Shown here in pieces: positions 1,775 through 62,960 of a stretch of 64,000 nt of DNA (position 1 is the stretch's first letter; each line of letters starts with the position of its first letter). The stretch comes from a virus (lineage: Duplodnaviria > Caudoviricetes): positions 27,055 to 91,054 of IMG/VR virus record IMGVR_UViG_3300028797_000139, one strand, 5' to 3'. Below the pieces are notes generated by a model, which made no database searches, was not told the origin of the DNA, and was given only the letters and a program-made list of their open reading frames with translations. A program made the translations under genes and the position numbers.

Positions 1775-2080
1775 GCGGGTGTGGTGGAATTAGTAGACAC
1801 AAGGGAAAGCTGTAAAGTGAGTCCCCTTTATACAGAAATGTATATCGAAAATCGGTTGAATTCGGCTGATGCTTGAGGGAAGCGGAGGGCGAGCCAAGCC
1901 AAAGATAAATCTTTGGAAGGTGTAGAGACTACCTGAGAAGTAAATCTTCTTAATAACAGGCAAGAGCGACCGATACCTAAATGCAATAGCACAAGGTAAT
2001 GAGATAGTCCAAAAATTTAAGTTTTGCTTAAAATCCCTCGACTTGATGTCGTGCAGGAGCAGAGCCTGTCACCCGCACCA
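1775..2080 (+). tRNA. trnL: tRNA-Leu(UAA) split by a group I intron (exons 1775-1806 and 2027-2080)
   Basis: joined exons give GCGGGTG/CACCCGC acceptor, AGGGA-CTTAAAA-TCCCT anticodon arm, long variable arm, ACCA end; atypical T-loop AGCAGAG. Confidence 0.85.
1807..2026 (+). ncRNA. compact (220 nt) ORF-less group I intron in tRNA-Leu
   Basis: P3 ATCGGTT/GACCGAT, R GTAGAGACTA, S GAGATAGTCC (P7), P9 CAAAA/TTTTG, terminal G; IGS GAGTCCC pairs with ligated GGGA|CTT. Confidence 0.85.
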
Positions 2081-25301: not shown

Positions 25302-28300
25302 ATGAATGATACTCAACTTCATTGTCACACGCACGGCTCTAATTTGCGTATGTTAGACTGTATAATTAAAACAAAAGATTTAATAGACAGGGCTGTTGAA
25401 CTTGGTATGAAAGCCGTGGCAATTACAGACCACGCCAGTATCAGCGAAGCTATAACTGCTATTAAATATTCTAAAGAATTACAAGCCAAAGGCGAAAATA
25501 TTAAAGTCCTTATAGGTGATGAAATTTATGTAGTGGATGATGTTAATGAAGTTAAAGCAAATTATATCCCCAAAGAAACAAAGTTTTATCACTTTATTCT
25601 AATTGCCAAAGATAAGATAGGTTTTGACCAATTGAGAAAAATAAACGCTGTTGGGTGGCAATCAAGTTTCTTTACGGGGAAAATGCGTAGAGTTCCTAAT
25701 GATAGGAAGCAAATAGAAAATATAATTAAAAATAACAAAGGACATCTACTTGCGAGTACAGCTTGTATTGGAGGAGAATTTGCTTCACAATTTCTTAAAG
25801 GTGAAACAAATAAGTCTATTGAATTTTTTAATTGGTGTGTAACAACTTTTGGTAAAGATAATTTCGCAATAGAAATCCAACCTTCAGTCAACCCAGACCA
25901 AATTAAATTTAATAAATGGGCTTATACTTTTGCCAAAGAACATGGTGTTAAATGTATATCTACTTGCGATGTTCATTATCTTAAAAAAGAACACCACGAT
26001 ATACATAAGGCTTTTCTTACAAGTCGCGAAGCCGACAGAGGCGAAGAAGAAGATTTTTATACCACAACTTATATGATGACTACAGAAGAAAAGCGTGAAT
26101 ATTTCAATTATTTTACAGATAAAGAATATGCAGAAATTGTAAATAATGGTTGGAATTTTGTAAAAGATGTAAAATTTTTTGATATGGAACACACCACCAT
26201 TATTCCAGAAAGAAATTTAGATGGCATAAATTTTTCTGTGAAACATACTTTTAAAAGTTGGTATGAAAAATATCCTTATATTCAAAACTTTGCTTATAGC
26301 GAATATGAACAAGATAGATATTTTTTATATATGGTAGAAATAGGATTTATCAACAAACACCAAGAATTTAATGAAACAAATATAAGTCGTATCGCGTGGG
26401 AACTTGAACAGCTTTGGTTAATTAGTGATAAACTTGGAGCAAGAATGTCAGCATATTATAATCTTGTAGATTATATTGTAGATATTTGCTGGGAAATTGG
26501 ATTTGTTGGTGTTAGTCGTGGTAGTGTGACAGGATATTATACTGCTTATCTTATTGATATGCAACAAATGAATCCCATCCAATGGAATCTTCCTGCCTAT
26601 CGTCACCTTAATGCAGAAAGAGTAAGTTGGCCCGATGTAGATTTAGATACTTCAGCCAGAAATCGCCCTAAAATTATAGCAAAACTAAGGGAAGTTTTTG
26701 GCGAAGATAATATTCTTAATATTTGCACTTTCAAAACAGAAACAACTAAATCTGCTTTTAAAACTGCCTGTCGAGGGCTTGGTATTTCTAACGAAGAAGC
26801 TGATTTCTTATCTTCCCTTGTTCCCGTTGAAAGAGGAAAACAATGGAGTGTCCAAGATTGCTTATGGGGCAATTCAGAAAAAGAAAGAAAACCTGTAATA
26901 GAATTGGTTAATAGAATTAAAGAATTAAAACAAGATATTGGCGTTGATTTAAGTGAATATGTGAAAATGATTGAAGGGCTTATATCTGGCATTTCACTTC
27001 ATGCCTCGGGGATATACATTTTTAAAAATGGTTATTTGGCACAAAATAGTTTAATGAAAACCCCCCGTGGCGATGATGTGACTTGTTGGGATATGCCTGA
27101 TAGTGATTATTGTGGTGGATTAAAATATGATAGTCTTACCACAGAATGTCAAGATAAATTAGAAGTATGTATAGAACTTTTAATTAAATATGGAAAAATT
27201 CAACCAAAAGCTACTTTAAGAGAAACTTACAATACTTATCTTCACCCCGATATTTTGGATTATACCACAACAGAAATGTGGGATAAATGTTCCAATGGAG
27301 AAATCACCGATTTATTCCAATTTATTACTCCTGTTGGTGGAAAATGTATTCAAAAAATTAAACCACACTCCCTTGAAGAAATGGCAAATGCTAATTCTCT
27401 TATGAGAATAAATGTAGAAAATGGCATCCAACCTGTAGATAAATTTCTTGCTTATAAGCATAATAGAAACCTATGGTATGAAGAATTAAAAGATTATGGT
27501 ATAACGAATAAGGAAGAAATAAAAGCACTTGAAAAAGTGTTGTCTTATTGTTATGGTTGCCCTTCTATGCAAGAAGATGTTATGGAACTTTGTATGGAAG
27601 AAAAGATTGCTGGATTTGGACTTGCTGATGCAGATAAAGCACGAAAAATAATTGCGAAAAAGAAAAATGAAGAAGTTGATTTATTAAAAGAAAAATTTTA
27701 TAACGCAGTAAAAGATAAGGGTAATTCTATAAATATTGCCAATTATGTTTGGGAAGAATGTATAAAACCTCAACTTAATTATTCCTTTTCTAAGTGCCAT
27801 GTAATGCCGTACAGCGTAGAAGCATTGCAAGAAATGAATTTATATTATCATTATCCTTCTGTATATTGGAATTGTGCCGCACTAATTGTTAATGCTGGGT
27901 TAAGCGATAATTCAAATGGAGATGAAGAAGAATATGATAATAAAATAAACAAAACAACAAACTATGGTAAAATAGCACAAGCTATTTATCGAAGCAAAAA
28001 TTTTGGCATAAATGTATTGCCTCCTTCTATTAATAATTCTGAAACTTCTTTTACCCCCATAGAAAAAAATAATTCTATTGTTTTTGGTTTGGGTTCGATA
28101 GCTGGCATCAATACACAAATTGCTCAACAAATTATTAATAACCGTCCTTATACATCTTTTGATGATTTTTATAGAAAAAACACCTATACCAATTCTCTTG
28201 TAACCCCTTCAAAAATTATACAGTTAATTAAAGCAGGATGTTTTGATGAATTTAATCTTGATAGAATGAAAATCATGAAACGATATTTTGTTTTGTCAAA

Positions 28301-31719: not shown

Positions 31720-31932
31720 TTGGAAATTATTTTATATTCAACGCATTGTCCTAAATGTAATATTCTTGAAAAGAAATTAAATGAAAAAAACATTTCTTTT
31801 AGATTAGAAACAGAAATTGAAAAAATGCCAAAGCAAGTAATAAATTCTAATACAGTACCTTGGCTCAAAGTTAATGATTGCTTAATGAATTTTGGCGAAG
31901 CTGTGAAGTGGGTGAATTCTTATGGAAATTAA
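31720..31932 (+). CDS. glutaredoxin/NrdH-like redoxin
   Basis: CPKC and TVP motifs; upstream of nrdD. Confidence 0.8.
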   Translation: MEIILYSTHCPKCNILEKKLNEKNISFRLETEIEKMPKQVINSNTVPWLKVNDCLMNFGEAVKWVNSYGN

Positions 31933-34664
31933 CTTAAATCTTTCCAAAGATTTTGAAAGATGTTTAGATGATTTGAAAAAGAAATATGGGGAAGACTTTG
32001 AATATATTAATGGCGTTCATCCAAGTCAATTAGACTTTTCTGAATTTATTAATAATTTTGTTCAAAAAGATACTTTAGCAGATGTCAGTATTGACCCTAA
32101 TTCTAATGCTAACAATCGTGATATTCGGTCTTTTATGACAGAAAAAGGAAAAAGTAGTGATAAATTGTTTGCCTTAAATAAAATTTTTATCACTATTAAA
32201 AAGCAATGGGGATTAAGAACAGCCAAGCAGTGGTTAGAGCAGGAATTTAATAAAGGTTTATATTTGAACGATTCAGCCACAGCCAGTTATTTCCCGTATT
32301 GTTGGGCTAACGATTTAACAAGATTAGCTACAGAAGGTTTATTTTTCTTAAAAAATTATAATAATCAACCTCCCAAGCATTTAACTACTTATTTCGATGA
32401 TGTCATTGAATTTGTTTCTTTCTTATCTAATCGTCAATCGGGAGCTGTCGGTTTACCTAATGTTTTAATTTGGGCCTATTATTTTTGGAAGAAAGATGTA
32501 GTAGAAGGGTATTACATGAAAGACCCTGATTATTATCTAAAGCAACAATTTCAAAAATTTATATTTAGATTAAATCAACCTTTTCTTAGAATTGACCAAA
32601 GCAGTTTTACTAATGTATCAATTTTTGATAGATGCTATTTAACCGAATTATTTGGCGATATAGAATTTCCTGATGGTAGTTTTGCTATTGACCAAATTGA
32701 AGAATTAATTAATGTGCAAAAAGTTTTTATGGAAGTGGTTAGTGAAATAAGAGAAGAAAATATGTTTACATATCCCGTTGAAATAATAGCGGCCTAACGG
32801 GGCGACCCGTTTTGCAAACCCTGTGAACTCAGGGAAACTCTGAATAATACACCTTCTTTAAGCGGGGGTGATAAAATGGCAAGAAAAATAGGCATACCAG
32901 CCGAAAAGATACTTGAATTGCACAATCAGGGATTATACGACCAAGAAATAGCAAATATTCTCGGATGCGAAAGAAGCAATATCACTATTAGACTAAAGAA
33001 GCTCGGAATTACAAATCGCAGAAGCAAAATCGAAGATATTAAACTTAGAAATCGCATTAGTGAGTCGCTAATTGGAAGATATTGCGGTGAAAATAATCCA
33101 AATTATAAAGGATATAACGACGAAAAACAAATAGCGCGTGGAATTTTTAAGACATTCTCCAAACGACTAATAAGAAATGCGGATTACACTTGTGAATTTT
33201 GTAAACGTCGCGGTGGAAATATGGAATGTCACCATATTAAACCGTTCAACATTATCTTCACCGAGTTTATCAACAATAGGTACGATGGCAACATCAATAC
33301 TATCTATTCCCAACTGATGCAATACGACGATTTTATCAATGAAACTAATATGGTGGTGCTGTGTGAACAGTGTCATTATGATGTGCATTATTCAGACAAT
33401 CCTGAACTAAGCCCATATAGATGGGAAAGCGCAACGACTATCTCGAAAGAGAGTACATCGTAAGCTATTGACGATGGAAGCGCAGGGGGGCTAATTCTTA
33501 GTCCATGATATAGTCTGCTCTCTACGGCGACGTAGAGCTGTTCGAAAGAACGGCAACGGCGTAGCGAACCGTTGTGAACACAAAGGATTAACATATTCGC
33601 TTCTTTATAAGGATGGCAAGTTCGTCGATGAACCCTTTGCAAAATGGTGTTCAAGCCATAACATCAAGTGGAGCGATAGCAACTTCTTTGTAAGTGATAA
33701 TGTTGGGGTTTTGTCTAATTGTTGCAGACTCTTATCAAACACCCAAGAACTTGACCCCTTTATTAATTCCATTGGTGGAACCGCCTTATCTGTAGGTTCT
33801 TGTAGAGTTAGCACAATTAATCTTGCCAGAATTGCTTACGAATCTAAATTTAATAAAAAGAAGTATTTAGAAATACTTAAAAATCGTGTTGAACTAAATT
33901 GCAAGGCATTGTATTCTATGCGTTATATTTTACAACGTAATATAGAAAAAGGTTTATTGCCTAACTATCAAGCAGGTGCCGTAGAATTAAATAAACAATT
34001 TTGCACCATTGGCGGGATAGGAAATTTTGAAGTTATGGATATGTTTGGATTAATTAAAACAGACGAACTTGGTAATAAATTTTATTCTAATGAAGCTATA
34101 GATTTTACATTAGAAATTCTAAATATCATTAATGAAACAAAAGATAATTTTGTGAATATTCATAATTGTGATTTTAAGTTTAATCTTGAAATGATTCCTG
34201 CTGAAAATTGTGCAGGGGTTATGGCAACTGCTAACAATTTAATTTATGAAGATAATAAATATTTTATTTTATCTAATCAATGGATTCCTTTAATGGAAAA
34301 ATGTACCATTCAAGAAAAATGTCATTTAGGTTCTTTATTTGATAAACGCTGTGGTGGTGGATGTATAGCCCATATTAATACAGAAGGACGCTTCCCAACA
34401 GAAGAAAGTGCGTGGCAAATGTTGAACTATGTAGCTTCGCAAGGTGTAATTTATTTTGCATTTACTACCAAAATTTCTGTATGTAAAGATAAACACGCTT
34501 TTATAGGCACTTCCACTTGTCCTAAATGTGGGCAACCTATAGCTGATACTTATTCAAGAGTAGTTGGATTTTATGTACCTGTATCTTCTTATCAAAAAAT
34601 TCGTAAACAAGAATTTGATAAGCGCCAATGGTATAATGCAATGTCAATGGATAAAATGATATAA
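31922..34664 (+). CDS. nrdD: class III anaerobic ribonucleotide reductase, exons 31922-32778 and 33587-34664 (644 aa predicted)
   Basis: spliced FTYPVLTYSLL junction; PPKH, QSGA, NCCRL, PAEN, glycyl-radical SRVVGF. Confidence 0.92.
32779..33586 (+). mobile_element. group I intron in nrdD carrying an HNH gene
   Basis: P1 CCGU/GCGG with U.G; R GCAACGACTA, S GATATAGTCT; ends in G; removal restores frame. Confidence 0.9.
32876..33463 (+). CDS. intron-encoded HNH endonuclease (HTH + HNH)
   Basis: CEFC, ECHHIKP, LCEQCH; 3' end runs through the intron core. Confidence 0.85.
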   Translation: MARKIGIPAEKILELHNQGLYDQEIANILGCERSNITIRLKKLGITNRRSKIEDIKLRNRISESLIGRYCGENNPNYKGYNDEKQIARGIFKTFSKRLIRNADYTCEFCKRRGGNMECHHIKPFNIIFTEFINNRYDGNINTIYSQLMQYDDFINETNMVVLCEQCHYDVHYSDNPELSPYRWESATTISKESTS

Positions 34665-51654: not shown

Positions 51655-53091
51655 TTATAATCCCGGATAATCAGGATAATATTTCATCAACGTAACGCTC
51701 ATGGTATCATCTATGTCAAAACCGAAACTAAATGATTTAATTAAATATAAATTAGTTTCGTGATTTCTATGAGTTGTATATTGCACTAAAGTATTAACAT
51801 CTAACCAAGCCACAGGCAAACAAGTTAAAGTTACAGTATTTTGCATATTTGTGTGAATATATAATTCATACTTAGCCCTTTGAAGAGCCAAATCATCTGT
51901 CATGCAATTATCATAATCGCCACCATATAAAGGCAACCGAATTTCACCAACTGTACCACCCACATAAAATGGACTATCAGGATTTTCGTCTTTGACTTCA
52001 GCATAAGATTGTAAATGCCCTATCCATCTAAAATAAGGAGTAGTACCACCCACATATTGCACACAATAATAAACTTCTCCACTTTCGGCTTCTATATTAG
52101 CACTTCTTCCCGGTTCTATTAAAACATTATAAGAAGATAAACTATTTATTCGCAAAGTAGGGGCAGTAATACCAGTATTATTAGTTAAAGTAAAACCATA
52201 TATAACACCATCAGTATAACTATCTACTTCGTCTATAGTCAAAGTTAATCTGTTCCACAAAGAACTATAAGTAGTTGTTGTAGAAAAATACGCAGGGTCA
52301 TGTGTTCTCCCCCACACTTCTATATAATTTTTAATATTTTGAAAATCTACTTCAACTTTTTCTGTAATAACAATATCTTTCCATAAACTATCATCTATTT
52401 GAACAGGTTCATTTTCGCCTGTGGGAATAGGTTCATAATGAAAAACGCCATCTACATCAAAATAAATTTCATAACTTGGGTAAACATCCCTTAGACCAGA
52501 CAACACAGTATAAATCGTTGACCCCTGTGAAAAATTTAATTCTATAGGAAGCAACCCAGAATCAGGGGCTTCTTCACAAATATATTTTGTAAAACCACTT
52601 AATAAAAATGTGTCTATGATAGCTTGCCTTATATTTTCCCCCGCTTGAATAGTAACAGGGACACCGGGTAAATAACCATTTCTAACGCCAGACAATTTAC
52701 TCATAAGGTCTAATAGGCTTAATTCTAATGTATTGTTTAACGCATCATATTCAAAAGTTGGGGCATCAACTACAAACGTACCAATTTTCGTGTATATTAC
52801 TTCATTTTTTGCCACCATTTTCGTTCCTAAATACAAAGTAATATACTTATCTAACCAAACTTTACTTCCAGAATTGACTTCAAAACTACTATCAGTTATA
52901 AGGATTTTTAACGTAGCCGAACGCCGCATATCTGAATCAGCATTAACATTAATAGAACCATTTTCAGTAATTCCTTCTAAACTATCTACCACTTGAAAGT
53001 TAGAATTTAACAATTCTATGCGCGTATATTTATTTTGAATAGATTGCTTAACACTACGAAGTTCATCGTTTGTAATATTCAGTTGTGCCAA
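51655..53091 (-). CDS. baseplate hub/tail protein
   Basis: first gene after TMP; DMRRSA, LDLMSKL, YFDVDG, PVAWLDVN. Confidence 0.65.
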   Translation of the reverse strand: MAQLNITNDELRSVKQSIQNKYTRIELLNSNFQVVDSLEGITENGSINVNADSDMRRSATLKILITDSSFEVNSGSKVWLDKYITLYLGTKMVAKNEVIYTKIGTFVVDAPTFEYDALNNTLELSLLDLMSKLSGVRNGYLPGVPVTIQAGENIRQAIIDTFLLSGFTKYICEEAPDSGLLPIELNFSQGSTIYTVLSGLRDVYPSYEIYFDVDGVFHYEPIPTGENEPVQIDDSLWKDIVITEKVEVDFQNIKNYIEVWGRTHDPAYFSTTTTYSSLWNRLTLTIDEVDSYTDGVIYGFTLTNNTGITAPTLRINSLSSYNVLIEPGRSANIEAESGEVYYCVQYVGGTTPYFRWIGHLQSYAEVKDENPDSPFYVGGTVGEIRLPLYGGDYDNCMTDDLALQRAKYELYIHTNMQNTVTLTCLPVAWLDVNTLVQYTTHRNHETNLYLIKSFSFGFDIDDTMSVTLMKYYPDYPGL

Positions 53092-53158: not shown

Positions 53159-56100
53159 TTAATGAACAAAACTTAACACTTGTCCAAATAAATTATTTCT
53201 AATGTATTCCACAAAACCTTGTCCATCAGTAACATTGGGCAAGTTCAACGCTTGAATAGTAACATTCATATTCTTGCTTTGAGAATTAGCTACTTGCTGT
53301 GAATATTGATTGGGCGTTAATTGCCCCCAAGCCATCAAATTGCGTGTTAAATCATGAGGAATAATACCATCGCCTTGACCTAACACTCTTAATTCCGCAC
53401 CTTTTTCGCCCACTAAAGACAAACCACCAATAGAACTTAATGTCCCATTGGCATATCCATGTGCAGATTTCCATTTATTTAAGAAACTTTCTGTAGAATC
53501 ATATTGGTCAATACCTTCGCCAAGCATTTTAGCATCTCGCAAAGCCGCCATTTGAACAGCTTCTTCATAAGTCTTGGAATTTAATATCTTTTCAGAATAA
53601 TCGACATTGGCATCATAATCCAGACCACCTGTTAAAGCACCAATTAAATCAGTAGCTTTCTTAACAGATTCCATGATTCCAATATATTTATTCGCCCAAA
53701 TACCAGCAGTACCAACTAATTCTTCCCAACCCTTTAAGGTAGTATCAATACCTAATTGCTGAGATAATAAAACTTGATTTTGAATCTTTTGATAATCAGA
53801 ATTAAAATCAGACCATTCGTCTTTTAATTTACCAAGGGCATCTTTCTGTGCTTCTAAGCCATCTATAGTTTCATTAAAGGATTCTTCTTTTAAGTATTCA
53901 TCTAATTCAGAAGCAGCGGCAGATACAGCGTCTATGTCTTCGGCATATTGCCAATGTCCATCCTTATAAACCATAGTTTTAGTTTGTCTTGCCCTTGCCA
54001 ACTTGTCTAACTTTTCTTCTAAATCAACTTGTTTCTTTAATTCTTTATTATTCGCTTGCAAAGCTTCAATTTGTGCATCAATATCATCAATTTGATTTTG
54101 ATAATAATCTTGCATAAAGCCTTGTAAAACTTCAATGGCTTGTTTTTGTTCATCTAATTCATCTTGATAAGCATCTAACATATCAAGATAGTTTTGTAAA
54201 ACTTCATCAGAAATATCGTTTAATTTATTTTGCCAACTCCACCATTCTTTACTTAGACCATTAATTTCAGTTAAAATTTCTTTAACTTCTTCTTCAGATA
54301 AACCTAAGTCTTTGGCGTTCTTGACATTTTCTCTTAATAATTCAGCTTCTTCGTGTAAATTATCTTGAACTTCACGAATTTTCTGAACCCTTATTCTCCA
54401 TTCTGCGCTTTGCGCTTCTAATAATTCGTATTCACTTTTTAATAAACTGCCTTGTACTTCTAAAATATCTTTGTCCAAAGCATGAATTTTATCCTGCCAA
54501 TCCCACCATTCAGAGCTTAAACCATTAATTTCTGTTTGAATATCTTCAACTTCTTGTTCAGAAAGCCCAAGTTCCTCGGCTTGATTGACCATATTTCTTA
54601 ATTCTTCAGCTTGTTCATGTAAGCTATCTTGAATAGCTTTCATCTTTTCTTGACGGGAATCAACAGAAGCACCCTGCGCTTCCATCAATGTTAATTCACT
54701 TTCAAGTAAATCCCTATGACTTACAATTCTGCTAATAGAATCCTCAATATCTTGGATTCTTGTATCCATAGATTCATATAAGTCATTAATATCAGATTGT
54801 AAAGAAAACCATTCTACGCCAAGTTCATTTATATGCTTTAGAATTTCTTCTACTTCTGCTTCATTTAAGCCCAAAACATCTGCATTGGCAACTAATTCCC
54901 TTAATGTTTCTGCCTCAATATGAAGTTCGTTTTGAATTTGTTTAATAATTTCAATACGCTTTTCTTCAGAAACGCCTTGGGCTTCCATTAATTTAAGTTG
55001 ACTTTCCAGATAATCTCTGTGGTCTTTTCTGGATTCAGCAGAATTTATTAAATTTTCAGTAATTTGCTGTTGCCAATCTAAGGTTTCTTTAGTATAATCA
55101 ACAACATCTTTTTGTGCTTCTAAATCGCCATTGACATATTCAGAAGTGGTTTTCATATATTCTATTAATTCAGAATATACGTCACATACTTCTTGGCTTT
55201 TATTATTTAATTCTTTCGTAGAAGCATTTTGTTTTTCTAATAAATCATATTCGCTTTTTAATAAATCAATACGATTTTTATAACTATTTATAATATCTTC
55301 ATTAGATTCAACAATAGCTTGTGTTGCTACAGAAGCAGAAGCAGAACTTATGCCACCACTTGAACCTCCTGAAGAAGAGCCAGAATTACTACCGCCAGTA
55401 GAACCAGTAGCACCACTAACAGTAACACCACTGCGAGGAATAAAACCAGAAGATTGTCCTACGCCACCGCCGCCAACAAAAGCATCAATAACGCCACTTA
55501 ATCTACGACCGCTTAAAATATCTTGCGTTTCTTCAGCAGTATAAACAGTTGCACCTTTTTCAAGATTGGTAACAGTTGGTAAACCTCCACCAGCAATTCT
55601 GGCTGTGTTACCTTCTTGAATAAGTTCTGGGCCTTCTTCGTTAACTAAAGCAGTACCACCGGGAGCATTGCTTGTACCAGAAGCATAACCCTTATTAAGA
55701 TTTTTAAGATTTTGCGAAATAGTGACAGGAATAGTTACTTTCTGTGTTGCCAAATGGTCTAATTTTTGTTGTACTTTAATAACTTCCCTGTCAAAACTCG
55801 TCGTGTTCAAAGTTACAGTTGGGTCTGCATTAGAATCATCCACATCATCTAAAGCGTCTTCTGTATTACTTGCTTCTGTTTGTGCTTCCATAGCCTTGGT
55901 AATCATATCGTCTAATCCAGAAATAGGATTACCAAAAGTTAATCCTTCAATTTCTCCCAAAGAACTAACGACATCACGAATATCTTGCTCTGTAGCACCT
56001 GCCGCCACCATATTGTCTACTAATGTCTGTAAGTCTACACTTGCCACACCATCAGCAGTATATTTAATAGCATCTAAGCTTTCGGCTAACCCCAGTGCTT

Positions 56101-59100
56101 GGGTAGAACTCATAGAGGTTTGTATGCCAAAAATTTCTAAAGCGTCAGCTAAAGCCCCAAGCAATCCTTCATCTACTTCAAATTCTTCACCAATTTTATC
56201 CCAATCGGCACTAAGAATTTGAATTCCATCAGAAGTTTCCACAAAAGAAGCAATTACATCATCATTACTATCAACTAAATCGCGTTGTGTACCAATAATG
56301 CCATTTACTTCATCAACATAAGGGCCAATTTCTTTTGCCGCACCAGATAAAGCAGATATAACATTAGCACCATAATCTTCTCCATTACCAGAAAATACAG
56401 CACTCCAAAATTCATTACCAAGCAACTCGCCTAATGCCTGATAATCATTTTGTAACTCATCCTGTTTATCAGACGGGAAGAATAGTTCGATACCTGCTTG
56501 AAATGCTTCAGAACCAATAAGACCTTGCTCATAAGCGTCTAAGAAAGTCTGAAAAGCAGTAGCATATTGCTTAAAAGTATCGCCTTTTTCAGAAGAAGTG
56601 GCATCTTGAAATTCCTGTAATTTTTGTGTAGCCGCAATTAATTCATCTTCTAAAGTAGAAAATGCCGCGATTTGTTCATGAATAGATTGTGTAAATCCAC
56701 TTGATGCACTATCAGCAGAAGTTAAAGATGCTTTCCATTCACTAATTTTGGTTTGCATTTCACTAACAGAAATACCATATTTATCTGCGGCTTCCTTCAA
56801 ATCCATAGTTCCTTGTAAATATTGAGAAACTAATTGTGAAAAGATTGCACCTTCTATTTCGTCTGTAAATGCTTCACCAAGTTGTTCTTTTGCTTCAATG
56901 ACAGTTTTATTACCTTTAAGAACAGCATCAACAACATTTTGTTCATATTTATTTAAGCTATCTGCATAAGTTTGATACTCATTGTTAGCAGTCCTAATGG
57001 CATCTGTAACAGAATTAAAACTATTTTCTGCGCTATAACGCCATTCTTCTAAGTAAACAACATTTTCAAGTATTTGCGAATTAGCTTCGGTTAAATTTTC
57101 GCTTAAAATATCTCCACCAGTAAAAGCCGCATATTCAACTTGCAAATCATGCCATGCTTGCATCGCTTCTTCTTGAGCTTCAAGTTTTGGATGCTCACCA
57201 TATGCATCTACATAATCACGAAAATGTTGTTCAATTTCAGCTATTCTTTCACTAATTTGTGTTTCTGTATCTAAGCGATACTCATTGGCTTTAATTTCTG
57301 CATCAGTAAGAACAGCCATTCTTTGTTTGTATTCTTCTTCTTGACGCAGTAAATTAACATATTCGTCACCGCCAGCGACTACTTCGTCCCACACTAAACT
57401 TTGTTGATATTCTTGTTGTAACCGAAGTAATTCTTGATATTTGGCTATGTCAGCATCCAATGTCGCACTACCAACAGAAATAAATCCATCAGAAGTTTCA
57501 GCTAATTGTTGTTGAATATTTAATAATTCTTCGCTTTCTTCTGCCGTTAATGCTACTTTACTTTTTAATTCATCATATCTATCAATTAAATCTAAAGTGG
57601 CAGTATTAGAATCAATTTTGCCTTGAATATCTTCTATATTAGATAAAGATTCGTTAATTCTATCTAAATCAGTAGGTAAATTTTTAATATAATTTACTAA
57701 TTTAACAATAAGTGTAATAACAGTAGTGATAATCATAATTGGCCCTAAAGAAGTGCCAAAAATACCACCCATTAATCCTTCTTTACCACCTATTGAAGTC
57801 AAAGCCTCTGTTAATGTCATAGTCTTAGAACTAACTAAAGACATTACAGTACCTAAATTAGTAAATTGTCCAATAAGATTCGGCAACACTTTGCTTGCTT
57901 TAAGTAAGCCTGTTGCACCCCAACCAATACCAGTTAATAATGTAATTTGTGTAATTATTTGTCCTAAACCAGTATCGGCTAATTTTAGAAAACCATCAGC
58001 TAAAGATAATAAAGAAGAAATTAATTCTTTATTTATAACATCTGTAGCCAAAGATTGAAAATCTGCTTTAAGCAGGTTTGTTTGAGCTTCGCTTTATATT
58101 TGTTAAGAAGTGCTAATTCTTAACTTGTAAATATTACAACTCTCCCTTTCAGGACGAGAATTGACCATATCTTAGCCATAAGGCTCCACCTTTTTTGGGG
58201 ACAAGCACTTTCCCCTACTCCTTAAAGGATGGTCGATGAACCTTGAACTATATATTTTAGTCCCTTGGATGCGGATTATCCAATCTATCTTATTGTTACT
58301 ATACCTTCTGCATTACCAGTTGCCATTATATTGTCACCAATATAATTTAGTAAAGATAGCTCTAAGGAAGTTCCCGCAGTTAAAGTGGTTTTAAGTAGCC
58401 CCATTTTATTAAGGCTCTCCATATAAGCCTCGTTCTCCTGCATTGCGGAACCAGAAGAATTAAGCGCAGTATTTGTAGCTTCGATGGCAGTATCAAAGTT
58501 CTGCATTAAAGCGCCAAGTTGTACGCTTTGATTTGCCCCGGCTTGAATATTTAAAAAGTATTTTTGTTCATTTTCAGATAGGGTGTCCCAAATCTGTGAA
58601 ACATCATATAATGTATCATATAATGACCTTAATTGTCCATCTTGGTCATAAAGTTGAATATTATTTTGGTTATAGAAATCAATAAGTTTTTGGCCTGTAG
58701 AAGATGTTTCGTCCAAAATTTGATTATAACGGCTCTGGACTGAGACAAGTCAATATTATTACCCAAGTTCGCTACTCTTGGACGGAAAGAATTTCCCCAG
58801 AATCGTTTTATATTCTTCTGAATGTTCTATTTGCCAAAACGGTAGTCTTATCAAAGTTATTCCATTTTGTAAACAGAATTGATTCTTCACACTATCGTTA
58901 GATTTTAATATATTAAAATTTTCTTCTGCTTCTTCTTTAGTAGCACCAAACCATGTGACAGGCTTAAAATGTTGCAAACCATCAACTTCAATGCAAATAT
59001 TTTTGTCCGATACATAAAAATCAAATTGCAACAATTTTCCTTTTTTGCCACGGCAACCATCAAATATCTTTTCTTTTGTATAGATTATTTTATTTAATTT

Positions 59101-62100
59101 TAACCAATCTTCCACCGCTTGGGCAATTTTAGATTGTTTTATTCTGCAAGCATTACATTTATCTTTATGTTCATAAATTAAATGACTTGCGTCTACTGTA
59201 AAATCTGCACCACAAGCACATCTTGCTTTAAGATAATATCCGGTTCCCTTAAATTCTTGGTCGTATATATAACATCCATTATTACGCTTTTCCATAAGCA
59301 AGCGAATATTATATAGCGAATAAGGATTTCTCACAGAAAATTTTTCAAAGGTACTGCCCTGTAAAAATCTGGATGCAGTAATAATACCCTTATATCCTTC
59401 TTTGTCTTGCACTTCTACTTTTTCTTTAGTTGACCGAATATTATTACTCAACAATGTTAAACCCATTTCTTTCGCTTTATCATAATAAACGGACATGGGC
59501 GTTCTTCTGTTTTCAGTATAATTTGCTTCATATCGAATTTTGCGATAACAAGTCGCGCAAACTTTATTGTCAGCATGAACAAAATTGGCCCAAGTAGTTT
59601 TATATGTTTTTCCACAAAAACCACACAAAAATACTAATTTAGAATTACCGCTTAAATAATCTTGCTTTTTTGACAACAGAACGGTATTAGTAGTCACATA
59701 ATTGTCCATATAATATATTATATTTTCCCAAAAATATGTATTTTTAATACTAAATGGTTTGCTATATGCTTGTGTCTTATCTAAGGCATCTTCCACCGTC
59801 CGCAGACTTCGATTAAATAAATACCCGTCTACATTTTTACATTTCATAGGGGTATCGACGCTTTTATAAACGGTTGATAATAATTCTAATTTAGCCAAAG
59901 AAAAAATATATTTGGCTTCCTCCAATGTTCTTCTTTTCATAAATTCCTTCCCCTTATGCTTTCACATAAGATTAGATTATTTCTTCACCCCTGATTAAAG
60001 GGGGTCTGCCATTTCGATTTAAGGGAATTTCACCCGCCAGCTTTGGCCCTACTCCTATTGCGATTCAGTCGCCAAGGGATAATCGTTTGACACACTCCTG
60101 TTCGGAGCTTCGCGCCCAAAGACCCATTATTACAACACTTAGGCTTTTAACCTTATGTCATCCTTGCTGTTTTTAACACTTTCGCACATTCACGCTCGTC
60201 AATCTTTCAAGACCACGTTGTAGTCGCAAGGCTTTAGGGATTACTGGGTTTAGACAAATACTTATAATGCACATTACTGTACACTTAGGGACTACTCTCC
60301 CCGTGCGGTTTTAGCACCGTTTCTATTGATTTCTGTTATTGCCGTCATGAGACCTAAGGTTTGTTCGTATGTAACACCACCAATAGACAAGGCGGCACTG
60401 GCTTTTCCGATGTTCGTTGCTACGTTTTTGTTTTGCAAGTACGCTACGCTTGCAGAATATTGGATAAATATTCCTTATACTTTCATATAAGACCAGCATA
60501 TTTCTTCATCCTTTATTAATTAAAGGAGTCCCCCATTTTCAATAGCCTTATAGCGATTAACTATTTACTTTATGCGTTTGACACACCCCTATTCAGGGCT
60601 TCGCGCCCAATGACCCATTGCACAAACACTTAGATTTTTCAATCATATGCCATCCATACATTTTTTAATACTTTCGCGCTTTCACACTTACGCTTATTTC
60701 ATCGTTATGTTGTAGCAGTATGGCTTTAGGGATTACTGGGTTTAGAGGGAAGCTAAGTGCATATTACTATACACATGACCTATTTTATTAAGTCAGCACT
60801 ACTCACCGAAAAGTTATTTGAGACTTCATTATTTTATATTGATTATAGTTGCCAACTATAATTGATTAAATAATTTAATCACTTATAAATTTCTTTATAA
60901 GAATCGACCATATCTTTCACATTTAATCTGTGATAGGGCGTTTCGGAAATAGGCACTTTTTCCTACTCTACTCGTTTCGTGCTTATGCCTTATTCTATTC
61001 ATAATATTATATCATAAATAGTTACATTTGTCAAGTTAATACTTGATTACTTTCGATGGTCTGTGAACCTTACTGCATATTTCTATGTAGTCTTGGATGC
61101 GGATTGTCCAATTTTTATCTTTGTTACTATACCCTGAATCATTACTTCAAGCCCTTAAAACATTACTGCTTTAAGTTAGTAGATAAAACTCTAAGGATGT
61201 CCCCGTCAATTAACCCTATAGCCGCCAATTTTTAGTCAACGGCATCAATGATATGCTCGGCATTTTCTGCTTCAATATTAAACGCTTTCATTTGGCTAAT
61301 AATAAAGTTAGCAGATTCGCCAGCACTTAATGCTTCATCGGCTACATTTTGATATTCCGTAGATATTAAAGCTAATGTTTTACTATCTTCTTCATTGAAA
61401 CCAGACTTTTTGAAATTAGTAGCCGCATCTACCATTTCGCTTGCAGTTCTGGCAGTAATTTGTCCTAATTGTCCTAACTCTTCAACATATTGTTCTAATC
61501 CTGAGCCACGGAGGTCTGACACCTTTTTAACGTATTGTTCAGTTAAAATTTAACTTTCATTAAATACCGATTCGTAACATCGTACCCGTTATATACATAA
61601 CAGCTTTATATTTCTATAAAGACCAGACTATATCTTACTCTTTTATTAAAGAGCCACACCACTACCCAACGATTTTAGGGATTATAGTCGTTGAACCTTC
61701 CTCTTTTCGAGGCTTGGATGCTGATTATCCATTTTATAATACTTAGGATTTAACCATATATCATTTTATGATTTTTTTCTGCTTTCGCCACTATCACGCT
61801 TATGTTATTTCACCATTACGTTGTAGTATCATAAACTTTAGGAAGTCCCAGCAATTCAATGTGTTTATATTTTATCTCACGATAAAATAGAGCCTAAATT
61901 AACTCAGTTATTGCCGCATCTAATTCATACGTTTGTTCTGCCATACTTTCTGCCACATCAATAAACTCACGCATAATAGCGTTAGCAACAGAAATAGACA
62001 TTTCAAAACCCGAAGTATCGGCATGAACCCCAACAGTTACAGGATTAGTATTTAGTTGACTTTGTATATCGGCTGTGTCCAGTTTTACTTTTGCCAAAAT

Positions 62101-62118
62101 ACTAAACTGGTCTGCCAT
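53159..62118 (-). CDS. tail tape measure protein, six exons: 62118-61902, 61530-61239, 60831-60791, 60422-60299, 58750-58412, 58091-53159 (1981 aa predicted)
   Basis: exon lengths 217+292+41+124+339+4933=5946 nt, one open frame; junction peptides AITEFKKVSDL, IIDAVNEVSNNF, SSADLATNIG, KTARGLVSVQ, YMESLEAQTN are typical TMP sequence. Confidence 0.88.
58092..58411 (-). ncRNA. TMP group I intron 5 (320 nt, no ORF)
   Basis: P1 AGCCU/GGGCU with U.G; R TTCATCGACCA, S AAGATATGGTC; ends in G. Confidence 0.88.
58751..60298 (-). mobile_element. TMP group I intron 4 (1548 nt) with endonuclease ORF; junction ambiguous by 1 nt
   Basis: IGS AGTCCCT pairs with ligated GGGGACT; R TCAAACGATTA, S AAGAAATAATCT; ORF lies after P9. 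Confidence 0.82.
58759..59940 (-). CDS. intron-encoded endonuclease: Zn-ribbon repeats plus Vsr/DUF559-like (EDxHD-type) nuclease domain
   Basis: CGFC/CATC/CACG/CNAC; FDFY...IEVDGLQH...NDSVKNQFC...LIRLP. Confidence 0.85.
   Translation of the reverse strand: MKRRTLEEAKYIFSLAKLELLSTVYKSVDTPMKCKNVDGYLFNRSLRTVEDALDKTQAYSKPFSIKNTYFWENIIYYMDNYVTTNTVLLSKKQDYLSGNSKLVFLCGFCGKTYKTTWANFVHADNKVCATCYRKIRYEANYTENRRTPMSVYYDKAKEMGLTLLSNNIRSTKEKVEVQDKEGYKGIITASRFLQGSTFEKFSVRNPYSLYNIRLLMEKRNNGCYIYDQEFKGTGYYLKARCACGADFTVDASHLIYEHKDKCNACRIKQSKIAQAVEDWLKLNKIIYTKEKIFDGCRGKKGKLLQFDFYVSDKNICIEVDGLQHFKPVTWFGATKEEAEENFNILKSNDSVKNQFCLQNGITLIRLPFWQIEHSEEYKTILGKFFPSKSSELG
60423..60790 (-). ncRNA. TMP group I intron 3 (368 nt, no ORF)
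   Basis: P1 UGACU/GGUCA with U.G; P7 variant GCATA/TATGC; ends in G; core similar to intron 4. Confidence 0.85.
60832..61238 (-). ncRNA. TMP group I intron 2 (407 nt), apparently ending in A rather than G
   Basis: IGS ATTGGCGGC pairs with ligated GCCGTTAAT; R TTCACAGACCA, S AAGATATGGTCG. Confidence 0.82.
61006..61034 (-). promoter_or_regulatory. sigmaA consensus promoter inside TMP intron 2
   Basis: TTGACA-17-TATAAT with extended TG on the minus strand. Confidence 0.65.
61531..61901 (-). ncRNA. TMP group I intron 1 (371 nt, no ORF)
   Basis: P1 GAGU/GCUC with U.G; P AATTGCTGG, Q AATCAGCA, R TTCAACGACTA, S AAGATATAGTCT; ends in G. Confidence 0.9.
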
Positions 62119-62179: not shown

Positions 62180-62395
62180 TTACATCTTACCTTTTCTCAG
62201 CCAATCAATATCAGCATAATTTTCATCCATATGCTTATCAATTGGATTGCTTTCATACTTCTTTTTGTAATCATTATTTGACTTAATAGCAGAAATAATT
62301 AAACTCCACACAAAAGCCAAAAATGACACAACACACAAAATTGTTATACCATTGCCAGTTGCAAGTGCGGCAATCAACAGAAACAAACTAATCAT
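62180..62395 (-). CDS. small membrane protein with its own promoter (moron-like)
   Basis: GAGGTG SD, ATG at 62395, hydrophobic N-half. Confidence 0.6.
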   Translation of the reverse strand: MISLFLLIAALATGNGITILCVVSFLAFVWSLIISAIKSNNDYKKKYESNPIDKHMDENYADIDWLRKGKM

Positions 62396-62414
62396 ATTTA
62401 TCACCTCTGTTTGT

Positions 62415-62443
62415 AGTATAACACATATTTCTTCATTTGTCAA
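62415..62443 (-). promoter_or_regulatory. sigmaA promoter in the late region
   Basis: TTGACA-17-TATACT with extended TG. Confidence 0.7.
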
Positions 62444-62960
62444 GCACTTTTCCAAATATCTTTTTATCAATTTGAGATTTTCCCAAAAGAATAGCATCAC
62501 TAATATCATCTTCATTGAATTTGCTTGAGGGAGATTTATAGACCAAAGACAAATTAAATTCTTTATTAGCCATTTCTACAGACTTTCGTTTTAATTCATC
62601 CCTTTTAGTCCCTTGACGCGAACCATCGAATAGCCCCAAAGGACTACGCCATTTAGAAGGAAGAACAAACTCAATATCAATATTTTTGAAAGCACTCAAC
62701 CCATATACCAAGCCTTGTACAGCACCAAGCATAATGGCAACTTTAATGCCGCCCTTGGTGCTTAAAGGCACATCTTCTACAAAAATCTTATCAGGCTTAT
62801 ACTGTCTAAATAATTTATTTAATTGTTTGCCAATTTCATAAATTCTTTCACGCCAATTAGGATTGAAAGATTTAACCATACCATAATCTATTAGTTCTTT
62901 ATTGTCGAAAACAGCATACCCACTTGATTTTGTACTTAAATCTAAAGCTATAATTTTCAT
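62433..62960 (-). CDS. ruvC: RuvC-like Holliday junction resolvase
   Basis: IIALDLS...GYA, FVED, PSKWR, EDISDAILLG. Confidence 0.8.
   Translation of the reverse strand: MKIIALDLSTKSSGYAVFDNKELIDYGMVKSFNPNWRERIYEIGKQLNKLFRQYKPDKIFVEDVPLSTKGGIKVAIMLGAVQGLVYGLSAFKNIDIEFVLPSKWRSPLGLFDGSRQGTKRDELKRKSVEMANKEFNLSLVYKSPSSKFNEDDISDAILLGKSQIDKKIFGKVLDK

Follow-up and report, generated by a model that had tools for sequence, protein, structure and literature searches.

A phage tape measure gene interrupted by five group I introns, with a 41-nt exon between two of them

The window analysed here is a 64,000-nt stretch of the IMG/VR virus record IMGVR_UViG_3300028797_000139 (positions 27,055 to 91,054), from a genome whose completeness is rated at ~95%. 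A tape measure protein (TMP) gene occupies the minus strand from 53159 to 62118 and is made up of six exons and five insertions. A RuvC-like resolvase gene lies directly upstream, as it does in Enterocloster phage PMBT24, a tail-protein gene (51655-53091) lies downstream, and the neighbouring genes are intact. From 5' to 3' along the gene, the features are:

61902-62118, minus strand: exon 1, 217 nt, with the ATG at 62118
61531-61901, minus strand: intron 1, 371 nt, with a canonical U.G at the 5' splice site and a terminal G
61239-61530, minus strand: exon 2, 292 nt, in which the PhageMin_Tail domain begins, with tblastn matches to annotated TMPs
60832-61238, minus strand: intron 2, 407 nt, with P1 GCCGUU/GGCGGC
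60791-60831, minus strand: exon 3, a micro-exon of 41 nt (40 with a 1-nt shift) encoding NEVSNNFSVSSAD
60423-60790, minus strand: intron 3, 368 nt, with a canonical U.G and a terminal G
60299-60422, minus strand: exon 4, 124 nt, collinear with PMBT24 and the IMG/VR relative L003
58751-60298, minus strand: intron 4, 1548 nt, with a terminal G at 58751
58759-59940, minus strand: open reading frame (ORF) inside intron 4, 393 aa, homing-endonuclease-like
58412-58750, minus strand: exon 5, 339 nt, collinear, with tblastn matches to many annotated TMPs
58092-58411, minus strand: intron 5, 320 nt, canonical, with P1 AGCCUU/GGGGCU and a terminal G
53159-58091, minus strand: exon 6, 4933 nt including the stop, an open frame for the TMP coiled-coil body and C-terminus

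The joined exons add up to exactly 5946 nt (1981 codons and a stop) and are free of internal stops; in the product, the junctions lie at codons 73, 170, 184, 225 and 338. A sequence-only reading had proposed six exons and five introns within the first ~340 codons, and this architecture holds; the three junction peptides that it named (AITEFKK, DAVNEVSNNF and TARGLVSVQSR) are all present in the joined product. The ATG of exon 1 is preceded by an AAGGAG ribosome-binding site read at 62133-62128, and the encoded N-terminus agrees with the start of the L003 protein (MATQFSILAKV...). In four of the five introns, an in-frame stop occurs 2-4 codons past the 5' splice site.

The product has an N-terminal PhageMin_Tail domain (TP901 type), great length and a tail-gene setting, all features of a TMP. 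Exon 2 alone matches positions 6-81 of the 201 in Pfam PF10145 with 28.5 bits (cut-off 33.2), the domain being split across exons 2-5. Residues 65-469 of the product align with the annotated TMP of PMBT24 over 416 positions at 39% identity, and the C-terminal 380 aa do so at 33%; the first 531 aa of exon 6 gave no tblastn match in phage records, and a scan of viral contigs with 500 aa of this exon gave none. The PMBT24 TMP is uninterrupted, and its blastp alignment with the joined product (E = 1e-73) is gapped at none of the five junctions, which places the junction architecture far beyond chance. L003, which lacks introns 1, 3, 4 and 5, can be aligned at the DNA level and likewise has no indel at the junctions, so that precise removal of the insertions restores a collinear frame in both protein and DNA. 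The junctions of introns 1 (AITE-F-KKVS), 3 (SSAD-L-ATN) and 5 (MES-L-EAQ) are collinear with both homologues, and L059 carries an intron 5 homologue at the same site with the same junction. The micro-exon is also confirmed, as its residues are contiguous and identical or near-identical in PMBT24 (NEVANNFAVSSGD) and L003.

Membership of the insertions in the group I family was assessed with the Rfam model RF00028 (Intron_gpI), which has a gathering score of 50 bits. Introns 1 to 5 score 62.2, 32.8, 19.4, 25.5 and 46.4 bits respectively, and the four introns below the curated cut-off are a point against the five-intron reading. The E-values are 4e-12 for intron 5, 4.9e-8 for intron 2 and 7.5e-6 for intron 4 in a search of the phage's own genome, and 0.02 for intron 3 in an 871-nt search. 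The cores of introns 1, 2 and 5 were aligned via the Rfam model. For introns 3 and 4 together with a homologue from the relative L008, RNAalifold gives 74 pairs (25 with compensatory changes) comprising P1-P6, P8 and P9, with three pair types at several positions of P3. P7 covaries by eye in the same three introns (GCAUA/UAUGC, GAUUAU/AUAAUC and GACUAU/AUAGUC), which thus have a conserved P3-P9 core with covariation in the P3/P7 pseudoknot. A U paired with the guide G is present at the 5' splice site of introns 1, 2, 3 and 5 but not 4, and a terminal G (omega-G) in introns 1, 3, 4 and 5 but not 2.

The sequence families proposed earlier are borne out by blastn: intron 2 resembles intron 5 (71% over 165 nt), intron 3 resembles intron 4 (74% over 202 nt and 81% over 47 nt), and intron 1 partly resembles intron 3 (79% over 57 nt and 78% over 45 nt). 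The cores are tied by blastn to introns of Staphylococcus Twort-like and K-like phages. Elsewhere in the same genome, further group I matches lie in nrdD and near a tRNA cluster; ARAGORN called no intron-containing tRNA near 1802-2033.

The same N-terminal TMP domain carries at least one interruption in 55 of 63 IMG/VR relatives, with 1-4 per interrupted gene and ten or more sites in all, which supports the earlier suggestion that this domain is an intron hotspot. Several of these interruptions exceed the Rfam gathering score, and many are homologous by blastn to the five introns described here; those in L002, L003, L008 and L009, which have no Rfam match at E ≤ 0.01, are tied to the group by blastn. 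The closest relative (L003/L012) has a homologue of intron 2 only, the other four sites being uninterrupted, in support of several independent invasions, as had also been suggested. Related introns occur in other genes of these phages too. A search of the literature on introns in Enterocloster phage returned nothing useful.

Very probably, a single TMP gene has been invaded five times by mobile, self-splicing group I introns that persist as selfish passengers. The introns appear to be IA-like in architecture and to represent three sequence lineages; one intron retains its homing endonuclease gene, and the other four have no ORF. We infer that splicing takes place and that the introns spread by homing. 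The late transcript would have to shed all five by RNA-catalysed self-splicing, in which guanosine attacks the 5' splice site and the exons are then ligated, to yield the 5946-nt frame and the 1981-aa TMP. Clustering in the PhageMin_Tail domain probably reflects its conserved sequence, which would offer reusable targets for homing endonucleases and guides in co-infecting related phages. The cost of the introns to the phage would be held low by splicing, and they are best read as passengers and not as a phage device.

Some of the intron ends required a choice. In intron 3, two small hairpins and an A-rich tail come after P9. An end directly past P9 at 60473 was rejected, since it adds 17 residues that are not in PMBT24; placing the end at G 60423 gives a canonical intron with U.G and terminal G and a gap-free alignment. 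The last base of intron 2 is A (U with a 1-nt shift), its end reading ...AAAA|U, and a terminal G is absent in the one register that restores the conserved DAV-NEV junction. The nearest G, 60827, was also considered as its end, and either breaks the frame or requires a 5' cut after G with loss of a conserved Asn; DAVNEV in PMBT24, L003 and L053 argues against it. Intron 2 also contains a perfect sigma-70-type promoter sequence (61034-61006).

Group I introns follow two near-universal rules, a terminal G and U.G pairing at the 5' splice site, and the departures of introns 2 and 4 from them count against the main reading. The P7 guanosine site of intron 2, read from its sequence, keeps a normal G-C pair, so that, on the precedent of the Tetrahymena intron, ligation of its exons should be poor. 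It is accordingly conceivable, though unlikely, that a gene with the architecture given above does not work fully in this record, its intron 2 ligating the exons poorly or never, the sequence being that of a defective or low-fitness variant or else containing an error of base calling or assembly at 60831/60832. Single-base errors are possible because the record is a metagenome-assembled virus. The introns at the same site in L003/L012 (76% identity over 382 nt to the L003 intron) and L053 both end in G, in favour of a defect, and no further copy of the intron 2/exon 3 junction, by which a polymorphism could be checked, turned up in exact-pattern scans of viral and metagenome contigs. Against a defect, the remaining core is intact (P3, P4, P7, P8 and three P9 hairpins), the exons are without decay, and the near-complete genome has intact neighbouring genes; in addition, a TMP is presumably needed in few copies per virion, for which weak ligation could suffice.

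Intron 4 departs from the other rule. Its ribozyme core spans ~60298-59950, and the ORF occupies a 3' peripheral loop and ends within a terminal hairpin (58781-58763). The ORF matches PHROG 559 'HNH endonuclease' (E = 2e-44), PHROG 9084 'homing endonuclease' (E = 7e-24) and PHROG 7140 'intron encoded nuclease', with a weak match of its C-terminus to Pfam DUF2726. A PDB sequence search with it gave chance-level matches alone, and a single-sequence AlphaFold model (pLDDT 38) was too poor for use. With an endonuclease ORF in a peripheral loop, intron 4 has the layout of a mobile intron. Its 5' exon ends in ...CGGGG, and the last G forms a G-C pair with the guide UCCCU in place of U.G. The homologues at this site in L073, L066 and L008 have the same G-ending 5' exon, which thus recurs in four related introns at one TMP site. 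One could suppose that introns 2 and 4 are both active despite breaking the terminal-G and U.G rules, the G-ending 5' exon being a tolerated ribozyme variant, and that serial, partly slow splicing limits the yield of a few-copy protein; we consider this quite unlikely as a whole.

It was also suggested that the introns are kept as a phage regulator, five serial splicing events delaying or limiting TMP synthesis and so timing tail assembly. This would fit, indirectly, a low-copy protein and the non-canonical, possibly slow introns 2 and 4, but nothing in the sequence indicates a timing or yield control. Close relatives have 0-4 introns at differing sites for the same protein, the PMBT24 gene has none, and related introns sit in other genes; such patchy presence and absence is what selfish homing elements produce, and a regulatory role is very unlikely. 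A truly fragmented gene, with separate polypeptides and free-standing endonuclease insertions but no RNA splicing, is suggested by the automated annotation of relatives such as Thomasclavelia phage TR-TP1, where the TMP appears in split pieces alongside HNH genes, but is extremely improbable here, because exons 2-5 have no convincing start codon and ribosome site and exon 3 is only 41 nt long, so that the pieces cannot be separate genes, and because the junctions are phase-exact and collinear and all five insertions contain a ribozyme core.

Comparable systems are known. Staphylococcus phage Twort has three group I introns in orf142, a phage gene with multiple self-splicing introns, and the T4 nrdD (sunY) intron carries its ORF 3' of the core, comparable to the endonuclease ORF in the 3' peripheral loop of intron 4. 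Both differ from the present case in having fewer introns per gene and in the host genes concerned.

TMP group I introns are known at three sites in Bacillus cereus-group prophages, TMP-IVS1, IVS2 and IVS3a/b (Tourasse and Kolsto 2008, PMC2504315). In those prophages, as in the present phage, introns of the IA class sit in this gene family, related ones can occupy different positions and unrelated ones a shared position, most have lost the endonuclease gene, and their distribution among related phages is patchy (PMC2504315). At most two introns per prophage TMP are described there, whereas the present gene has five within 340 codons and a 41-nt exon, and its relatives use ten or more sites. 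Lactobacillus delbrueckii phage JCL1032 has one TMP group I intron (PMC2504315, Table 3); by description it is similar in that the intron interrupts a late structural gene of a phage with a Firmicutes host, and differs in being the only one in its gene.

In Jug phages, according to the available part of a further report, group I introns commonly interrupt genes (mean 18.5 introns per genome), crAss-like phages being said to be likewise, and metatranscriptome reads confirmed splicing for 37 of 76 predicted introns (PMC12880540). As in the present gut-type phage, essential genes are broken up by numerous homing endonucleases and group I introns, terL and nrdD being among the genes affected there; the lineages and hosts (Bacteroides/Phocaeicola) differ, and TMP is not reported as a target in that part (PMC12880540). 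The background given in the sequence-only reading, that phage introns sit mostly in DNA-metabolism genes with one to three per gene, therefore understates the prior art (PMC2504315 and, as far as available, PMC12880540). TMP group I introns have been described since 2008 and intron-rich gut phages are known; the present gene is a record-sized, extreme case.

For annotation, gene callers will show this TMP as four fragments and 'hypothetical' pieces, and the same applies to most of the 63 relatives. As written, introns 2 and 4 would, provided that they splice, put the terminal-G and U.G rules of group I catalysis to a natural test. The TMP domain has five introns and an exon of only 41 nt in a span of 340 codons, and ten or more of its sites are used across relatives; it provides a compact natural system in which homing-site choice, the retargeting of introns (where related introns occupy different sites) and intron loss could be studied.

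In the IMG/VR virus record of 91,054 bp (completeness rated at about 95%; the window is its bases 27055-91054), stop-to-stop frames read together with the sequence give pieces of one protein, the tail tape measure protein (TMP), in differing frames with stop-rich stretches between them. P1 pairings and terminal G residues guided the manual placement of splice sites, which were then checked against homologues. The minus-strand TMP region has the following features:

62433-62960, RuvC-like resolvase gene (PHROG 827/159), two genes upstream of the TMP start
62180-62515, small ORF between the resolvase gene and TMP
62165-62146, terminator-like hairpin before the TMP ribosome site
62118, TMP ATG, following an AAGGAG ribosome site (read from the sequence)
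62118-61902, 61530-61239, 60831-60791, 60422-60299, 58750-58412 and 58091-53159, minus strand, TMP exons 1 to 6 (homologue-corrected model)
59940-58759, minus strand, ORF of 393 aa in intron 4
51655-53091, tail-protein gene (PHROG 1887), downstream of the large TMP frame

The joined exons comprise 5946 nt and 1981 codons with no internal stops, reproducing the length proposed in the sequence-only reading, and every junction peptide named there is found in the product. In Enterocloster phage PMBT24, a RuvC endonuclease gene immediately precedes an uninterrupted 1508-aa tape measure gene. The blastp alignment to PMBT24 TMP (E = 1e-73) spans 416 positions, product residues 65-469, with 39% identity; it is gap-free at junction codons 73, 170, 184, 225 and 338, and a second segment covers the C-terminus. 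A closer IMG/VR relative, L003 (identical to L012), has 74% identity over exons 1-2 and is unbroken at the sites of introns 1, 3, 4 and 5, its sole interruption being at the intron-2 site; when the joined mRNA is aligned with its coding sequence at nucleotide level, no junction has an indel. Collinearity with intron-less homologues, the decisive check of the five-intron proposal, thus holds for both PMBT24 protein and L003 DNA. A 3' end of intron 3 directly after P9 was rejected, since it adds 17 residues absent from PMBT24.

All five insertions match Rfam RF00028 (62.2, 32.8, 19.4, 25.5 and 46.4 bits for introns 1 to 5), with only intron 1 exceeding the gathering score of 50 bits. Blastn relates the cores to introns in phages of Staphylococcus, Bacillus, Enterocloster and Clostridium; one such intron carries the annotation 'Group I catalytic intron'. 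The predicted families (intron 2 with 5, 3 with 4, and intron 1 sharing two segments with 3) are borne out by blastn. Because the Rfam model aligns introns 3 and 4 poorly, they were aligned with a homologue from the related locus L008 and folded jointly with RNAalifold, which recovered P1, P2, P3, P4, P5 with extensions, P6, P8 and P9, with compensatory changes in 25 of 74 pairs and three different pair types at several P3 positions. P7, a pseudoknot and therefore missing from the nested fold, covaries when read directly: GCAUA/UAUGC (intron 3), GAUUAU/AUAAUC (intron 4) and GACUAU/AUAGUC (L008). The insertion between P7 and the P3 3' strand would fit the P7.1/P7.2 elements of IA-type introns.

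The intron-4 ORF matches PHROG 559 'HNH endonuclease' (E = 2e-44), PHROG 9084 'homing endonuclease' and PHROG 7140 'intron encoded nuclease', with a weak Pfam hint of DUF2726. It starts directly 3' of P9 and ends within a terminal hairpin (58781-58763), and therefore lies in a 3' peripheral loop. This hairpin shares homology with the last one in intron 3, and its pairing is retained in the L073 homologue with both strands changed.

Two splice sites are non-canonical. In intron 2, the conserved DAV-NEV junction is restored only with A or U as last base (5' cut after the first or second U of GCCGUU, respectively); intron 5 ends in ...AUAUAAAG, versus ...AUAUAAAA in its relative, intron 2. The chief doubt is whether intron 2 can ligate its exons; if it cannot, the record would be a defective variant or contain a base error. 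In these registers the introns that L003 and L053 have at this site both terminate in G, and the intron-2 P7 guanosine site is an ordinary G-C pair. Intron 2 also contains a perfect TTGACA-17-TATAAT promoter with extended TG (12 of 12; 61034-61006, minus strand), likely a relic from a lost intron-encoded endonuclease. The L003 homologue retains its hexamers and spacing; the short ORF after them has a ribosome site of its own and looks like an endonuclease-gene remnant. In intron 4, the 5' exon end ...CGGGG pairs with UCCCU, and if the intron is G-terminated the base preceding the cut is a G in a G-C pair. At the same Ala-Arg-Gly|Leu site, relatives of this intron in L073, L066 and L008 likewise have a G-ending 5' exon, which looks like a property of the intron lineage rather than an error.

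An exon-2 peptide profile search of IMG/VR gave 63 related loci, in which interruptions (insertions >150 nt) were counted from chained tblastn matches to residues 1-430. Of the loci, 55 have at least one insertion and eight have none; two insertions occur in about ten loci, three in two and four in one (L061). All these numbers are minima, since small exons may be concealed within large gaps. Sites cluster near residues 73, 102, 111, 130-136, 171, 173-174, 184, 207-221, 225-230, 288-297 and 338, in agreement with the suggestion that the TMP N-terminal region is an intron hotspot; residue 102, the most frequent site, is empty in the window's phage. Interruptions in L004, L005, L023 and L061 exceed the Rfam gathering score, and many others have blastn homology to the window's five introns. 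The five-intron TMP is the upper end of a continuous distribution.

Intron homologues also occur upstream of the exon-2 match (L052, L060, L061, L053, L014 and others, locus positions below 7000), several above the gathering score (e.g. L060 5634-5960, 93.7 bits), part in earlier TMP sites and part in neighbouring genes. Thomasclavelia phage TR-TP1 (L002; PQ571309.1 23364-29880) has two separate annotated 'tail length tape measure' CDSs, followed by two 'HNH endonuclease' genes (DUF2726-like), and an intron-1-like core (L002:6691-6891); its TMP is probably an intron-split gene unannotated as such. In Clostridium phage c-st (AP008983.1 around 103067-103243), a core like those of introns 1, 3 and 4 adjoins an IS transposase OrfB gene, reminiscent of IStrons. 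Within the window, nrdD (anaerobic ribonucleotide reductase) is split at 31922-34664 (plus strand; PF13597 positions 16-207 in 31922-32797 and 261-562 in 33711-34664) by an insertion with an Rfam group I match (33136-33537, 40.3 bits) and an ORF with HNH-like Cys/His motifs (32876-33463), recalling the T4 nrdD intron. Another match (1802-2033, plus strand, 36.2 bits, E = 4.7e-9) lies within a tRNA cluster, where ARAGORN called Lys, Glu, Thr and Gln tRNAs nearby and no interrupted tRNA. The phage group is intron-rich as a whole.

Repeated invasion of the TMP gene by selfish mobile introns, which would self-splice out of the late transcript, is the best reading. The proposal that the introns regulate TMP, by timing or yield, is unsupported; relatives make TMP from genes whose introns number from none to four and lie elsewhere. 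The architecture seen in the sequence-only reading is confirmed, its interpretation only in part. Truly separate polypeptides are excluded: one exon has just 41 nt, starts are missing and ribozyme cores are present.

In Bacillus cereus-group prophages, three TMP sites carry group I introns, with related introns retargeted to differing sites and differing introns at one site (Tourasse and Kolsto, PMC2504315, which also lists a Lactobacillus phage JCL1032 TMP intron), and in Cluster J mycobacteriophages introns are spliced from the genes for capsid and tail proteins (PMC3706429). PMC12880540 gives Jug phages a mean of 18.5 group I introns per genome, with metatranscriptome splicing support for 37 of 76 predicted introns (three genomes with paired metatranscriptomes), and mentions crAss-like phage genes interrupted by multiple introns. 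A limited literature search turned up no other phage protein gene reported to have five introns. The window's TMP gene belongs to a known class and is unusually dense in introns for it; two of them, introns 2 and 4, have non-canonical splice-site features.
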